Shown: positions 6,753 through 57,431, numbered from the stretch's first letter. The stretch is DNA of 64,000 bases from Candidatus Saccharimonadota bacterium (GCA_046350735.1 JAXLZU010000001.1:140530-204529), one strand, 5' to 3'. The notes: a model not told the origin generated them from the letters alone. Translations and numbers: made by a program.

Positions 6753-6829
6753 GGGTCCGTAGCTCAGTTGGTTAGAGCACCTGCCTTTTAAGCAGGGTGT
6801 CGTGAGTTCGAGTCTCACCGGACCCACCA
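6753..6829 (+). tRNA. tRNA-Lys (anticodon UUU)
   Basis: Hand-folded cloverleaf. Acceptor gggtccg/cggaccc (7 bp), D-arm 'agctcagttggttagagc', anticodon stem ctgcc/ggcag with loop 'cTTTTaa', T-arm gtgag-ttcgagt-ctcac, and a genomically encoded CCA. Confidence 0.85.
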
Positions 6830-20078: not shown

Positions 20079-20153
20079 GCGGGTATCGTATAATGATTAT
20101 TATTCCTGCCTTCCAAGCAGGTGATGCGGGTTTAATTCCCGCTACCCGCTCCA
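20079..20153 (+). tRNA. Atypical tRNA-Gly (anticodon UCC): lacks D-loop G18-G19 and the T-loop 'TTC'
   Basis: Acceptor gcgggta/tacccgc (7 bp) plus discriminator and CCA. Anticodon stem cctgc/gcagg with loop 'cTTCCaa'. T-arm gcggg-tttaatt-cccgc. AT-only D-arm 'gtataatgattattat'. Hand fold. Confidence 0.6.
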
Positions 20154-20266
20154 GAGATTATTTACAAATGGGCAGAGATTCTTTAAGAGAAAAAGCATCC
20201 TCTGCCCATTTGTTAATGGTCGTGTTAAGCACTCACTTTATTGGTACAATAGTGTGAGTGACACAG

Positions 20267-20343
<77 letters not shown>

Positions 20344-20344
20344 T

Positions 20345-20422
20345 GGTGAGTGTAGCTCAGTTGGTTAGAGCGTCGGTTTGTGGTACCGAAGGTCGTGGGT
20401 TCGAGACCCATCACTCACCCCA
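20345..20422 (+). tRNA. tRNA-His (anticodon GUG) with an encoded G-1
   Basis: G-1 at 20345. Acceptor gtgagtg/cactcac, anticodon stem tcggt/accga with loop 'tTGTGgt', T-arm gtggg-ttcgaga-cccat, CCA. Confidence 0.85.
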
Positions 20423-21600: not shown

Positions 21601-21677
21601 TGGTCGGGGTGAGAGGACTCGAACCTCCGGCCTCATCGTCCCAAACGACGCGCGCTAGCCAACTGCGCCACACCCCG
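21601..21677 (-). tRNA. tRNA-Pro (anticodon UGG)
   Basis: Reverse complement folds: acceptor cggggtg/caccccg, D-arm 'gcgcagttggctagcgc', anticodon stem cgtcg/cgatg with loop 'tTTGGga', T-loop 'ttcgagt', CCA. Confidence 0.8.
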
Positions 21678-21796
21678 GCGTCAAATTAACACTTAAGATT
21701 TATGAATTACATAACAATTTAATTCTTAAATTATCATATTAATTTTCGTTCTTGGCCAAAACTATTCTCGCTTTTGGCCGCTATATATATCATCTT

Positions 21797-21872
21797 TGGT
21801 GGGTCCGGTGGGACTCGAACCCACAACCAATTGCTTAAGAGGCAACTGCTCTACCAATTGAGCTACAGACCC
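21797..21872 (-). tRNA. tRNA-Lys (anticodon CUU)
   Basis: Reverse complement folds: acceptor gggtctg/cggaccc, anticodon stem gttgc/gcaat with loop 'cTCTTaa', T-arm gtggg-ttcgagt-cccac, CCA. Confidence 0.8.
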
Positions 21873-21895
21873 TCATAAAAAATTGTACTTAGATG

Positions 21896-21972
21896 TGGTG
21901 CGCCCTGAGGGATTCGAACCCCCGGCCTTCTGGTCCGAAGCCAGACGCTCTATCCAGCTGAGCTAAGGGCGC
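21896..21972 (-). tRNA. tRNA-Arg (anticodon UCG)
   Basis: Reverse complement folds: acceptor gcgccct/agggcgc, anticodon stem tctgg/ccaga with loop 'cTTCGga', T-arm cgggg-ttcgaat-ccctc, CCA. Confidence 0.8.
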
Positions 21973-46097: not shown

Positions 46098-47790
46098 CCG
46101 TAATGCCGTTGCCGCCATCCGCGTTTCGACCACTAAACAGGGTCGTGACGGTGACTCGCCCGAAGCTCAAAAAGAGCAAATAGAGCGCTTCGCGCAGAAT
46201 AAAGGTATTACCATCAAGAAGTTCTTTGTCTTCATGGAATCAGCCAGCAAAGAGCAACAGCCGATGCAGGAAGCCATAGATTACTGTAAGAACAAGGAAA
46301 ACAACGTAGATTTGTTTATTATTAAGTCGATAGATCGATTCACCCGTGGCGGGTCACTATCGTATGACCTGCTCAAAACCCAGCTGGATCGCTGTGGTAT
46401 TACACTTATCGATACCTACGGCGTTATTAGCCAGGAACAAGTTAATACGTTGGAGCATCTTGGACATAGCTACAAATGGAGCACCTACTCACCGAGCCGT
46501 AAGTCTGAGATGCTGGAAGCCGAGCGATCCAAAGATGAGGTCAGAGACATTTTAAGCCGTGTGATCGGTGCCGAAATCCGCTATACCAAAATGGGCTACT
46601 ACATGCGTAGACCACCCTATGGGTTTATGAGCGAAAAGGTAGAAACCCAGCACGGTAAGCGCACCATCTTGAAGCCACACACCGAAGAGTCCAAGTTCAT
46701 TATTAAGCTATTTGAACTGCGAGCCAGCCGACAATTTACCGATAAAGAAATAGCTACTAAGCTGAACGACATGGGCTACCGCGGACGGACACAGTACCGC
46801 CGCTCAAAAACAGACCGCAACCGTATTATTGGCAAGACCGAAGGTACGCTGCTAGATGATAAGAAAGTCTGGAGAATCGTCAGAAACCCCATCTATACCG
46901 GCATTATTGTTGAAAAGTGGACGAAATATCAGCCAGTCAAAGCTATGTTTGATGGGCTAGTATCAGTTGAGCTGTTTAACCGAGCCAACAAAGGTAAGCG
47001 CACTATTATTGAAATGCCCGGTAACAAAATCGCTATTACTGACAATGTCGCTACCAGAAACGCCACCCCGCAAGGTACACGCAACAATGACTTTGCTTTT
47101 AAGCACTACGTGATGTGCCCACAGTGCAATAAACCACTATCCGGCAGTACCTCACGCGGTAAAACTGGAAAATACTACTCGTACTACCACTGTGACAAAC
47201 GCGGCCATAAATTCAGAGTCAGTAAAGAAGATTTGGAAACTAAAATATACAGCTTCATTGATGGCATGGCGTTCTCCGAGGAGCGTATCGACAAAGTGTT
47301 TGCCATTGTTCGAAAGAAATACGAGCAGCACATCGCCACCTACGAGGCTCAGACAACAGCACTAAACGGACAGAGTACCACGCTTGAAGCCAAGGCTAGA
47401 GAACTCACCAGAAGCTTTGCAACCATCGCCCCATCAGCCCAGAAATACGTTAACGAGGAGCTGGAGGATATAGATATACAAATTAAGCGTTTAGCGCTGG
47501 AAAGGACGAATATGGAGAGCAAGAAACCCATGGATATAGATAAAGTTTTGAGCAGAATCAAGAAGTTTTCCGAAAACATTGGTCAGGCTATTGCTCAACA
47601 GAGTAACGACATCAAAAAAGCCCAGCTTTTCGGGCTATTATTCAAGACTTTGCCAACCTACAATGATTTAACTTTCCGAAACCGAAAAACACCCCTTTTT
47701 ACAGGGGTGCATCCGGTCTTCAATCTTCTCGCCACCGATAATCTACATTTGGTGACCCCAAGGGGAATCGAACCCCTGTTGCCAGGATGA
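46081..47790 (+). CDS. Large serine recombinase (integrase)
   Basis: Catalytic 'AAIRVSTTKQGRDGDSPEAQ' with 'KSIDRFTRG'. Recombinase domain ('PPYGF', 'WRIVRNPIYTG'). Zinc ribbon 'CPQCNKPL...YYHCDKRGH' and a coiled-coil C-terminus. The ORF runs 41 bp into the antisense strand of tRNA-Glu. Confidence 0.85.
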   Translation: MRQQANRNAVAAIRVSTTKQGRDGDSPEAQKEQIERFAQNKGITIKKFFVFMESASKEQQPMQEAIDYCKNKENNVDLFIIKSIDRFTRGGSLSYDLLKTQLDRCGITLIDTYGVISQEQVNTLEHLGHSYKWSTYSPSRKSEMLEAERSKDEVRDILSRVIGAEIRYTKMGYYMRRPPYGFMSEKVETQHGKRTILKPHTEESKFIIKLFELRASRQFTDKEIATKLNDMGYRGRTQYRRSKTDRNRIIGKTEGTLLDDKKVWRIVRNPIYTGIIVEKWTKYQPVKAMFDGLVSVELFNRANKGKRTIIEMPGNKIAITDNVATRNATPQGTRNNDFAFKHYVMCPQCNKPLSGSTSRGKTGKYYSYYHCDKRGHKFRVSKEDLETKIYSFIDGMAFSEERIDKVFAIVRKKYEQHIATYEAQTTALNGQSTTLEAKARELTRSFATIAPSAQKYVNEELEDIDIQIKRLALERTNMESKKPMDIDKVLSRIKKFSENIGQAIAQQSNDIKKAQLFGLLFKTLPTYNDLTFRNRKTPLFTGVHPVFNLLATDNLHLVTPRGIEPLLPG

Positions 47791-47824
47791 AAACCTGGTG
47801 TCCTAACCGCTAGACGATGGGGCC
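47750..47824 (-). tRNA. tRNA-Glu (anticodon UUC)
   Basis: Reverse complement folds: acceptor ggcccca/tggggtc (one G-U pair), D-arm 'gtctagcggttaggac', anticodon stem ccagg/cctgg with loop 'tTTTCat', T-arm agggg-ttcgatt-cccct, CCA. Confidence 0.8.
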
Positions 47825-51626: not shown

Positions 51627-51675
51627 TAATTCGTGCTACAATCTGATAGTCATAATCTAGCCTAAAGGGGTAGAG

Positions 51676-52089
51676 ATGAAGATCTTTGTTTGTTGTAGTA
51701 AAGCGTTTTATCCAAAAGTCTCACCAATCAAACATCAGTTAGAAGCAATGAGACACACCGTAACTTTACCCAATAGTTATGACAATCCGGGTAGAGAAGT
51801 AGAAATGCATAGCTTAGGCGCCAGAGAGCATGCGCAGTGGAAAGCCAGTATGCTTCGCTTGCAAAAGCAAAAAGTAGAAGACTGTGATGTTATCTTGGTA
51901 CTTAACTTTACCAAAAATGGCGTGCCTAACTATATCGGTGGAGCAACTTTTCTGGAGATGTACATGGCTTTTGAGGCTAGTAAACCAATTTTTCTGTACA
52001 ACCAAATTCCCGAAGGGATGCTACGTGATGAAATACTGAGTTTTGAACCAACTGTAATTAATGGCGATCTTCATTTAGTTAGGACCTAG
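51676..52089 (+). CDS. Nucleoside 2-deoxyribosyltransferase-like protein
   Basis: 'MKIFVCCS...' and 'CDVILVLNFTKNGVPNYIGGATFLEMYMAFEASKPIFLY' fit the D...G(T)xFExGYAxAxGKP pattern of that fold. Confidence 0.35.
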   Translation: MKIFVCCSKAFYPKVSPIKHQLEAMRHTVTLPNSYDNPGREVEMHSLGAREHAQWKASMLRLQKQKVEDCDVILVLNFTKNGVPNYIGGATFLEMYMAFEASKPIFLYNQIPEGMLRDEILSFEPTVINGDLHLVRT

Positions 52090-52109
52090 AAATCTAGGTT
52101 CTTTTTTTA
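52083..52109 (+). terminator. Hairpin plus T7 terminator
   Basis: 'gacctaga-aa-tctaggttc' followed by 'ttttttt'. Confidence 0.55.
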
Positions 52110-52127
52110 TGTTAGAATGTATCTAAC

Positions 52128-52603
52128 CCGCAAGCGTTTCGGGTTCTACGACGGCTTGGCTTTGCCGAACCTCCCTATGTCAACGGAAAAAATAGATCAG
52201 GAACGAAAAGCGGGAGAGAAAAAGCAAACGCTACTCGATGTGCTAGGGCAAAAGTGCTAGACCGACGCCTTTATGGGGGAAGTTTGGCAAACTAAGCCCA
52301 CTGGCCCAGGCGACAAGCCAAAGCGAGAAACAGCACATAGTGTGGGATTAGATACCCCACCAACCAGAGCACGTAGGTACACTTGGTAATGCCGGTACCC
52401 TGCGCCGGACGGGCAAAGTGCCCCATTTTGTACCACCTCCACTGCACGCAGCCGCGGTAAGAGTGGTGTAGGGTAGTGTGATTGCGCCAAGCAGTTGCAT
52501 TGCCAAACCGGAATAGAAGCGCCTTGGCGTGTAAATTCCAACCATCACCGGTGTGGTGGGTAGAGATGTTCACCTTGTCTCTGCCCACCCACCGGGTTTT
52601 TTT
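52128..52603 (+). ncRNA. Candidate structured noncoding RNA (~480 nt) of unknown class, with promoter-like -10 and a strong intrinsic terminator
   Basis: No credible ORF. The minus-strand ORFs here are low-complexity and one of them overlaps dut. 'tagaat' -10-like element at 52116-52121. A 17-bp GC-rich stem 'ccggtg(t)ggtgggtagag...ctctgcccacccaccgg' plus T8 at 52547-52603. Internal motifs: 'ggattagatacccc' and 'gcagccgcggtaa' (exact 13-mers of universal 16S rRNA sites); 'gcggtaagag' (RNase P-like); 'gggcaaa(a)gtgc' occurs twice. Confidence 0.35.
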
Positions 52604-52655
52604 ATTCTTCGTGCGCTTTTTGTTCGCCGCTAAATATTCATAGTACAATAGAGTT

Positions 52656-53099
52656 ATGACAAAAAAACTTACTATAAAAGTAAAAAGATTCGATACAACA
52701 CTACCCTTGCCAGAGAGAAAGTCTGACGGTGCAGCCTGTTTAGATCTATCTGCCAGAGTCGACGTAATTATAGAGCCAAAAAGTTTTGGTAAGATACCCC
52801 TTAATGTAGCTGTACAGGTACCAAAGGGGCATTGGGTGATGTTGGCAGCACGCAGCTCGACCCATAAGTTAGGGTTGCTACCTGCTAATGGGATTGGTAT
52901 AGGTGATGAAGACTTTTGTGGTAATGACGATGAGTACCAATTTTTGGCATACAACCCAACAGAACAACCAACTACAGTAGAAAAAGGTACTAGAGTTGCT
53001 CAAATGATGGTATTACCATACGAAATACCAGAGATAGTAGAAGTGGATGAAATGAAATCTGAGAATAGGGGTGGTATTGGGAGTACTGGTACAAAATAA
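52656..53099 (+). CDS. dut: dUTP diphosphatase
   Basis: Five dUTPase motifs in order: 'AACLDL', 'ARSST', 'GIGDEDFCGN', 'RVAQMMV', 'RGGIGSTG'. Confidence 0.8.
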   Translation: MTKKLTIKVKRFDTTLPLPERKSDGAACLDLSARVDVIIEPKSFGKIPLNVAVQVPKGHWVMLAARSSTHKLGLLPANGIGIGDEDFCGNDDEYQFLAYNPTEQPTTVEKGTRVAQMMVLPYEIPEIVEVDEMKSENRGGIGSTGTK

Positions 53100-56639: not shown

Positions 56640-57431
56640 ATGAAGATAAAAGCTAAAAAATCTCTTGGTCAACACTGGTTGCGCGATAAAGCCACCCTAT
56701 TTGATGTTGTAACAGCGGCAGAGATTACAAAAGATGATACTGTTTTAGAAGTTGGTCCCGGCCTCGGTGCTCTTACCGAAATACTCTGCGAATCTGCAAA
56801 ACAAGTGATAGCTGTAGAGGCGGACTCAGAGCTAATATCGCCACTGAAGGTTCAGTTTTATAATACGCCAAATGTAGAGTTTGTAGAAGCAGACATACTT
56901 ACGTTCGATCTTGGTGTCTTACCGCAAAAGTATAAAGTGGCAGCTAATATACCTTACTATTTAACATCTAACCTTATTCGTATGTTTCTCGAGGCAAATA
57001 ATCCTCCAGAAATTATGGCCTTACTTATTCAAAAAGAAGTAGCTGAGAGGATAATAGCTAAACCCGGACAAATGTCAGTCTTGGCTTTTTCGGTGCAATA
57101 TTATGCCAAAGCTCAAATTACTCGTGCCGTAGGTAAAGAACTTTTTGACCCTCCACCCAAAGTAGAGTCGGCGATACTGCAAATTATTCGTCGAGACAAA
57201 CCAGTATTTAGCGCGGATAGAGAAAAGTTATTTAAGCTGGTAAAGGCAGGTTTTGGTGAGAAACGTAAAATGTTGCGCAACGCATTGGCTGGTGGATTGC
57301 GCCTAGAAACTAGTCAAGTCGAAGAATTGCTGCAAAAATCAGGCCTACCGGCAAACGCACGTGCGCAAGAACTTAGCCTAGATGATTGGCGGCAAATATA
57401 CAATAATGCTTTAGCTTTACAGATTATTTAG
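56640..57431 (+). CDS. rsmA: 16S rRNA (adenine1518/1519-N6)-dimethyltransferase RsmA/KsgA
   Basis: 'SLGQHWL.D', SAM motif 'VLEVGPGLGALTE', 'NIPYYLTS'. Confidence 0.85.
   Translation: MKIKAKKSLGQHWLRDKATLFDVVTAAEITKDDTVLEVGPGLGALTEILCESAKQVIAVEADSELISPLKVQFYNTPNVEFVEADILTFDLGVLPQKYKVAANIPYYLTSNLIRMFLEANNPPEIMALLIQKEVAERIIAKPGQMSVLAFSVQYYAKAQITRAVGKELFDPPPKVESAILQIIRRDKPVFSADREKLFKLVKAGFGEKRKMLRNALAGGLRLETSQVEELLQKSGLPANARAQELSLDDWRQIYNNALALQII

Follow-up and report, generated by a model that had tools for sequence, protein, structure and literature searches.

A putative stand-alone RNA of Saccharibacteria with exchangeable copies of ribosomal RNA hairpins

Upstream of dut, a 64,000-nt stretch of Saccharibacteria DNA (hereafter the window, meaning the whole stretch analysed) contains a noncoding, G+C-rich unit of about 480 nt on the plus strand (52125-52603) that is bracketed by promoter and terminator signals of its own and which we predict to yield an independent, structured RNA. 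With its homologs it would form an RNA scaffold in which conserved 5' and 3' domains enclose an exchangeable middle and which carries sense-strand copies of rRNA hairpins, namely the 16S h18/530 loop in all members, the h24/790 loop in the window, L010 and L024 (L numbers denote contigs used for comparison) and the complete 23S GTPase-associated centre (GAC; H42-H44) in four relatives. At about an even chance, we favour the reading that this RNA acts by molecular mimicry in trans, binding proteins that recognise these rRNA sites.

A predicted transcription unit upstream of dut

The unit lies between a gene for a protein of 137 amino acids (51676-52089) and dut (52656-53099). An earlier note on this DNA had proposed here a noncoding plus-strand transcript of about 480 nt, starting behind an upstream terminator with a -10-like TAGAAT and ending at a strong terminator; these signals were all recovered, and homologous loci align to the window over 52125-52602, transcription itself being deduced from the signals. 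The features of the locus are the following:

52081-52109, plus strand: intrinsic terminator of the upstream 137-aa gene, with a 9-bp stem (52081-52102) and a T run; 5' boundary of the RNA unit
52110-52118, plus strand: extended -10 promoter element TGT-TAGAAT, with TAGAAT at 52113-52118
52125-52238, plus strand: conserved 5' domain of 114 nt, with a hairpin ACCCG/CGGGU and a long-range helix CUCCC/GGGAG around A-rich loops
52239-52341, plus strand: variable middle cassette of the window type, without a secure homolog in the other architectures
52342-52360, plus strand: mimic of the 16S h24 apex (790 loop), with stem GUGGG/CCCAC and the 9-nt loop AUUAGAUAC in the centroid fold
52369-52436, plus strand: 5' part of the 3' core, with the invariant stretch CACUUGG.AAU.CCGG, two small hairpins and CAUUUUGUACCA
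52437-52468, plus strand: mimic of upper 16S h18 (530 loop), with stem CUCCACU/AGUGGUG and loop GCACGCAGCCGCGGUAAG; found in every family member
52472-52504, plus strand: G-U-rich 14-bp hairpin with the conserved loop GCCAA; 97% of cells paired, double changes in two pairs
52510-52539, plus strand: hairpin GGAAU-AGAA-[GCGC CUUG GCGU]-GUAA-AUUCC in the predicted fold; deleted in L024
52548-52603, plus strand: intrinsic terminator of the RNA, a hairpin (52548-52595) of 20 pairs with one bulge, followed by U7
52604-52655, plus strand: probable dut promoter region outside the RNA, separate and strongly conserved, with invariant alignment columns

TAGAAT is counted as an extended -10 element because TGT precedes it, and the start site is expected near A52125; the promoter and terminator scan scored no -35 element upstream of the RNA. 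L006 and L024 carry GTGCTACAAT at the same spacing from the conserved 5' end as the promoter element of the window. The upstream terminator is kept in L003, L009-L014 and L025, and the promoter element and downstream terminator are present in all sequence types. The earlier description of the latter as a 17-bp stem followed by T8 was right about a strong hairpin (-37.2 kcal/mol, z = -7.3), but the count had to be changed to 20 pairs, one bulge and seven T. G+C content reaches 57% in the RNA unit compared to 37-42% in the flanks, and the fold of the entire region (z = -4.1) is more stable than 100 of 100 shuffles. No credible ORF was found between the 137-aa gene and dut, those listed being short, mutually overlapping or starting in the promoter (a 47-aa ORF begins within the spacer between the -10 element and the start site); minus-strand ORFs over the RNA are not conserved and have no homologs, and a protein search with a spurious ORF called over the RNA retrieved only itself.

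An extended -10 sequence, TTCGTGCTACAATCT, is located at 51633-51647 of the window, upstream of the 137-aa gene, and is found directly upstream of the RNA in L006 (2352-2366) and L024 (about 2312-2298, minus strand), both of which lack that gene. This placement makes the 137-aa gene, together with its terminator and a second TGTTAGAAT promoter, look as if it had been inserted between an older promoter and the RNA.

On the other side, the segment 52604-52655 is nearly invariant across all lineages (TTCGTGCGCTTTTTGTTCGC...TTCATAGTACAATA), with a conservation exceeding that of the RNA, and probably represents the dut promoter plus operator.

The whole window gave only tRNAs in Rfam 15 at the gathering threshold, and the 851 nt of 51950-52800 only hairpin noise at E<=10, while ARAGORN found 8 tRNAs and no tmRNA in the window. 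These tRNA genes are located at 6753-6829, 20079-20422, 21601-21972 and 47750-47824, several of them in two tight clusters on opposite strands, and their ARAGORN predictions end 3 nt past the Rfam matches, consistent with a genomically encoded CCA. That the sequence does not fit RNase P RNA, tmRNA, 6S or SRP RNA, as the earlier reader had judged by eye, thus agrees with the database searches. Neither RNase P covariance model (RNaseP_bact_a/b) matched at the gathering threshold or at E<=10, although the earlier note had seen an overlap with an RNase P-like motif. The short sequence GCGGTAAGAG is found in E. coli RNase P RNA too, but no GGAAAGUCCGG or ACAGAA..CCGGCUUA-like pair (motifs CR-I/CR-V) was seen in the sequence; moreover, near-universal presence would be expected of this essential gene, yet the loci of sister Saccharibacteria are without the RNA. 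A tmRNA was rejected on the lack of an ARAGORN or Rfam match and on the 3' end, which is a terminator hairpin; 6S and SRP RNA gave no covariance-model match and OLE RNA no Rfam match, and within the reach of covariance models the other known large ornate RNAs are excluded as well.

We consider it very improbable that the unit represents a highly divergent form of one of these housekeeping RNAs (RNase P RNA, tmRNA, 6S, SRP RNA) or acts in cis as a dut leader. Stable RNAs are indeed similar in size and in their richness in G+C, and E. coli RNase P RNA likewise contains GCGGUAAGAG. However, the empty searches with Rfam, down to E<=10, and with ARAGORN speak against the first possibility, which the earlier note had also raised, and so does the absence of the RNA from sister Saccharibacteria with the same synteny, which would be impossible for an essential housekeeping RNA. 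A dut leader is hard to reconcile with a strong terminator followed by a separate conserved dut promoter, and in L006 an additional ORF intervenes between the RNA and the dut promoter region. For the same reason a cis-acting ribosomal-protein leader was rejected, the downstream gene being dut with its own conserved promoter beyond a -37 kcal/mol terminator. Full-text literature searches found no description of such an RNA, and it has no Rfam family.

Copies of ribosomal RNA hairpins

Two 13-mers that the earlier note had matched to 16S rRNA are confirmed as exact and non-collinear, with minor corrections to their coordinates: GGATTAGATACCC (52345-52357, plus strand) is identical to E. coli 16S 785-797 and GCAGCCGCGGTAA (52448-52460, plus strand) to 521-533. 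Each occurs once in the window, and they lie 90 nt apart in an order opposite to that in rRNA. With up to one mismatch allowed, the chance expectation per 64 kb is 0.07 for GGATTAGATACCC and 0.03 for GCAGCCGCGGTAA; the note had called chance unlikely, and the two matches are indeed not due to it.

Both 13-mers lie in hairpins that resemble those of the ribosome. The copy of the 790 region in L010 extends to 24 nt of 16S 776-799 with 1 mismatch, on a stem CAGG/CCUG, and that of L024 has a stem UAGG/CCUUA, so that the loop is invariant in the window, L010 and L024, whereas the stems differ with compensation. The module is missing from L003, L006 and L025. The 530 hairpin, in contrast, occurs in all members, with the consensus CUCCA(C/U)U-[GC(A/C)(C/A)GCAGCCGCGGUAA(G/C)]-AGUGGUG, and L006, L025 and L024 contain the 18-mer UGCCAGCAGCCGCGGUAA, identical to 16S 516-533. 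Its 13-mer is invariant in the 3'-core alignment, and stem length and loop match 16S 511-540 (CUCCGU...ACGGAG). The stem does not vary apart from one C-G to U-G change and thus provides no covariation, so the h18-like fold is proposed by analogy with h18; the GGC partner needed for the rRNA pseudoknot is absent from the mimic.

The longest copy was found in relatives. L010, L003, L006 and L025 contain a GAC of about 100 nt that matches positions 1071-1169 of the LSU_rRNA_bacteria model with helices intact (81, 69, 81 and 82 bits, respectively; E 1e-19 to 2e-23). It is decayed in L003 and in L024, in the latter too far to score, and absent from the window. The fragment in L025 (472-568, minus strand) was skipped by Rfam in its default gathering mode but scored 81.6 bits in a more permissive mode, above the 50-bit threshold of the family. 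Inserts of such a kind would be overlooked by routine genome annotation, and the rRNA-like pieces include sites for 515F-type primers that are nearly perfect.

Elsewhere in the RNA, sense-strand similarity to E. coli rRNA does not exceed that of the antisense strand or of shuffles. The RNA is therefore not a decayed rRNA gene but an unrelated scaffold with discrete rRNA copies. An rRNA gene or pseudogene was likewise rejected for the window: the two 13-mers are its only matches, their order is the reverse of that in rRNA, and neither the SSU nor the LSU model gave a hit at E<=10; no rRNA genes were found in the window or in the other loci retrieved. Further pieces had been suspected by eye (PTC 2490-2506, 23S 2422-2435, 5S 75-83, 16S 544-552, the 1400 region and 23S H71), but were dropped because sense matches were neither more frequent nor longer than antisense matches or shuffles.

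The 5' domain, 82-96% identical to those of L010, L003, L006 and L025, shows no rRNA similarity above chance. Within the 3' core, the segment 52472-52548 folds with z = -5.0, and the outer helix of the hairpin at 52510-52539 covaries by eye (GGAAU/AUUCC, GGAAG/CUUUC, AGAAG/CUUCU). This hairpin tentatively resembles 16S h16: the L003 sequence aligns to E. coli 16S 409-445 with only 2 of 300 shuffles as good, but the other members gave no significant alignment and no covariance-model match was obtained. The motif GGGCAAA(A)GTGC does occur twice, as previously noted (52246-52257 and 52411-52421), but is not conserved in homologs. The sequence CACCUCC at 52434-52440, just 5' of the h18-like stem, equals the anti-Shine-Dalgarno end of 16S rRNA; it is probably incidental, since the window, L010 and L025 share it whereas L003, L006 and L024 have altered forms.

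Range, selection and cassette exchange

The proteins encoded around the RNA assign the window to Candidatus Saccharibacteria, its PPase being 100% identical to one annotated under that name on a 797-kb contig. Six sequence types, all of them from genomes of related Saccharibacteria, have the RNA in syntenic position, within the recurring order PK-TIM-PPase-[variable gene]-RNA-dut-pcrA-Rpf-ksgA. The syntenic contigs and the three layouts of the RNA are:

L001, L002, L009-L014: dut 99% identical
L003-L005 (GCA_029778565.1): dut 84% identical
L006-L008 (GCA_009613035.1): dut 79% identical
Layout A (L010, L024): 5' domain, hairpin, module X, 790, GAC, core
Layout B (L003, L025, L006): 5' domain, hairpin, GAC, core
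Layout C (the window and seven other contigs): 5' domain, divergent middle, 790, core

Scanning 185,579 species-representative genomes with a 3'-core motif added only L024, a Saccharibacteria MAG, and scanning JGI metagenomes added only L025; these scans were motif-based, so that divergent relatives could escape them. Viral contig scans were empty. Sister lineages (PPase 84% and 70% identical) retain the order PK-TIM-PPase...pcrA/Rpf but have neither the RNA nor dut at this place, and a family profile search of them was empty; around more distant dut homologs (WWE3 and others) synteny is lost and the RNA is missing. Because the sister loci are without the RNA and the scans added only two homologs, the family, which we regard as real on the comparisons given here, appears confined to a small clade of Saccharibacteria.

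In L039-L046, dut, the 137-aa gene and the RNA are all absent between PPase and pcrA, and the sister interval holds other genes (a Caroten_synth-like gene, an AAA_33 kinase). The nearest dut homologs beyond the clade belong to other Patescibacteria (WWE3, Dojkabacteria; 60-66% identity), and dut, the 137-aa gene and the RNA could have been gained in one block. In a WWE3 contig (L018, 1746-2903), an acetyltransferase gene is preceded by about 1.16 kb in which no gene was called, with no Rfam match at the gathering threshold and no similarity to the Saccharibacteria RNA.

The neighbouring genes give no hint of a protein partner: the gene upstream of the RNA differs among members (the 137-aa protein has a weak Nuc_deoxyrib_tr match, and L024 has a methyltransferase instead), dut adjoins on the other side, and no conserved adjacent protein gene suggestive of a partner was found. 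A gene for a KsgA/RsmA-type 16S rRNA dimethyltransferase (RrnaAD, 56640-57431) follows about 4-5 kb downstream, on the far side of pcrA and an Rpf-like gene. KsgA makes contact with h24 of the 30S subunit, but the proximity looks coincidental because L046, without the RNA, has the same pcrA-Rpf-ksgA order.

Between the window and L003, L006, L025 and L024, the 5' and 3' domains of the RNA are 79-87% identical, whereas third codon positions of PPase, TIM and dut are only 45-69% identical. Because the RNA domains exceed third codon positions in identity, this comparison argues that the RNA is under purifying selection. Covariation among related loci, a check proposed in the earlier note, was analysed in the 3'-core alignment of 7 distinct sequences, with slid-partner controls and 500 shuffles. 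In the proposed helices 96% of cells are paired, compared to 39-48% in the slid controls, and double changes occur in seven pairs, as many as in 2 of 500 shuffles; with only about 7 distinct sequences these statistics are modest. Four of the double-changed pairs lie in the terminator and two in the 14-bp hairpin, and in the 5' domain the helix CUCCC/GGGAG is replaced by CUCGC/GCGAG in L006, again with compensation. Conservation and covariation together point to a functional plus-strand RNA, as far as sequence comparison can tell.

These results bear on the possibility, named in the earlier note, of a scrambled relic derived from rRNA. Such a relic would be a non-functional leftover of rRNA gene fragments that came to lie between a terminator and a promoter, for instance through ectopic intron homing or illegitimate recombination. 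The 530, 790 and GAC sites coincide with classic insertion hot spots of rRNA introns, the order of the pieces is non-collinear, and the GAC is decayed in L003 and L024 and lost in the window, all of which a relic would explain. But the gap in identity between RNA domains and synonymous sites, the compensatory changes in several helices including the terminator, and the conservation of promoter and terminator in all members would not be expected of a relic, and we consider this origin quite improbable.

The middle of the RNA evolves in another manner. As members of the same species, the window and L010 are 94-95% identical at third positions, and identity in the conserved RNA domains is 96-99%. 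Their middles (130 nt and 286 nt), however, are essentially unalignable, with sharp breakpoints, whereas L010 and L024, despite the distance between their genomes, share 85% identity over 264 nt of the middle. Because conspecific middles are unalignable while those of distant genomes are alike, the middle behaves, in these alignments, as an exchangeable cassette. The window cassette takes the place of the 286-nt middle of L010, and its local alignments to L010 and L024 are only borderline. MAFFT placed the window middle against the GAC of relatives, but in pairwise tests two different modules aligned to it equally weakly, and no homology is claimed. Every rRNA module but h18 is dispensable in some lineage.

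Possible functions and comparison with known systems

Of the three options left by the earlier note, an rRNA-mimicking RNA is the one that we favour, in view of h18- and h24-like hairpins with invariant loops and compensated stems and of the GAC in relatives. It assumes that the RNA is made and stable and that the copies would be read by the same kinds of molecule as in the ribosome. Because the 530 13-mer is among the most invariant columns and the 790 loop persists on stems of different sequence, the rRNA loops themselves appear to be what is read. Within the ribosome, uL10/uL11 bind H42-H44, h18 has uS12 and uS4 in its vicinity, and h24 is the place of platform proteins, IF3 and KsgA; candidate ligands would be uS12/uS4, uS11 and uL10/uL11, or initiation, assembly or modification factors that bind ribosomes. 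The resulting RNP might buffer or titrate the bound proteins or employ them as subunits. Isolated 530 and 790 hairpins are not known to be primary protein-binding sites, and the GAC and 790 modules, being dispensable in some lineages, could be passengers rather than working parts.

This last point leads to another possibility, namely that fragments of the cell's own rRNA genes were captured by recombination and exapted as structural modules or as ribosomal-protein handles that stabilise an RNP, with the function residing in the domains that are not rRNA-like. The 5' domain and most of the 3' core indeed have no rRNA similarity above chance, and the GAC and 790 modules were gained, lost or decayed among lineages. 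It would, however, leave unexplained why few columns of the family alignment vary as little as the 530 13-mer with its flanks, and why the 790 loop was preserved though its stem was rebuilt, and we consider such building blocks unlikely.

It is equally tempting to speculate that the RNA is a modular decoy of ribosomal sites, whose cassettes, copying the 530 loop of the decoding centre, the 790 loop and the GAC, imitate the places hit by rRNA-targeting toxins or antibiotics of the host community, or sequester the cell's own initiation factors or GTPases in a 6S-like manner. Soaking up or inhibiting such agents would shield the ribosomes of the epibiont, sequestration of factors would shut down translation, and the swapping of cassettes would reflect an arms race. 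All three mimicked sites (530, 790 and GAC) are established points of attack for thiopeptides, streptomycin and kasugamycin/edeine/pactamycin, and IF1, IF3 and GTPases bind there as well. In addition, the wholesale replacement of the middle between conspecific strains, with flanks and conserved domains 94-99% identical, is typical of conflict loci. On the other hand, no toxin, immunity or resistance gene is linked to the locus, stoichiometric decoys protect poorly against enzymes, and most of these ligands need the three-dimensional context of the ribosome, not lone hairpins. A decoy or immunity role, an idea that is wholly inferential, seems to us doubtful, though it deserves some weight.

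If mimicry in trans holds true, this RNA, built largely around literal copies of functional centres from both subunits, would be the clearest natural multi-site mimic of the ribosome, with an intact 100-nt GAC in relatives and strain-specific cassettes. Reduced epibiotic bacteria possess few regulators, and the RNA could reveal how they watch over or defend their translation machinery; natural ligands of minimal size would also become available for proteins that recognise the 530 and 790 loops and the GAC.

There is an outward resemblance to the mitochondrial rRNAs of Plasmodium, in which short pieces of the most conserved rRNA core (530, 790 and GAC among them) are likewise encoded out of order (PMC3382252). 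On this analogy the modules might serve a fragmented ribosome as parts added in trans, like those of apicomplexan mitochondria, and short, scrambled core pieces would suit such a role. Whereas the Plasmodium pieces together make up the rRNA of the ribosome, however, there are three pieces only, all within one unrelated transcript; the GAC and 790 modules are missing from some members, conspecific strains differ, and related organisms are without the entire locus. We give this explanation hardly any credence.

Mimicry in trans, the reading we prefer, has parallels in bacterial regulation. In 6S RNA (a mimic of open promoter DNA), CsrB/RsmZ and GlmY, the same logic is found as proposed here, with a stable RNA that competes by imitating a ligand; in the Saccharibacteria RNA, the ligand imitated is rRNA and the titrated protein is only proposed. 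Mimicry of rRNA itself is familiar from the short cis-acting leaders of ribosomal-protein genes, with L10, S15, L20 and Firmicutes S4 leaders being examples (PMC7247131; Meyer, 2018, cited therein). Like them, the Saccharibacteria RNA is an extra-ribosomal RNA that copies sequence and secondary structure of protein-binding sites in rRNA, with the apices of h18 and h24 in the window and H42-H44 in relatives. Those leaders, however, are short 5' UTRs of ribosomal-protein operons with one mimic each, whereas the RNA described here, 480-630 nt long, has a terminator of its own, stands alone beside dut and combines mimics from both subunits with interchangeable cassettes.

A stand-alone case has been shown only recently with OLE RNA, in which a mimic of the 16S anti-SD/SD duplex serves to bind bS21 (PMC12054373). 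Both are large, structured bacterial noncoding RNAs with an rRNA mimic: OLE recruits a ribosomal protein into an RNP, and for the Saccharibacteria RNA we find an independent unit, deduced from its transcription signals, with a conserved structure and embedded rRNA mimics. The two are unrelated in sequence and structure, they mimic other rRNA sites, and OLE occurs in Bacillota; in Saccharibacteria the copies are far more literal (13-100 nt) and the architecture is modular and variable, with partner proteins that are candidates only. What would be new compared to both systems is that a single stand-alone RNA unites several literal modules of rRNA, with both subunits represented, and that cassettes are exchanged at the level of strains.
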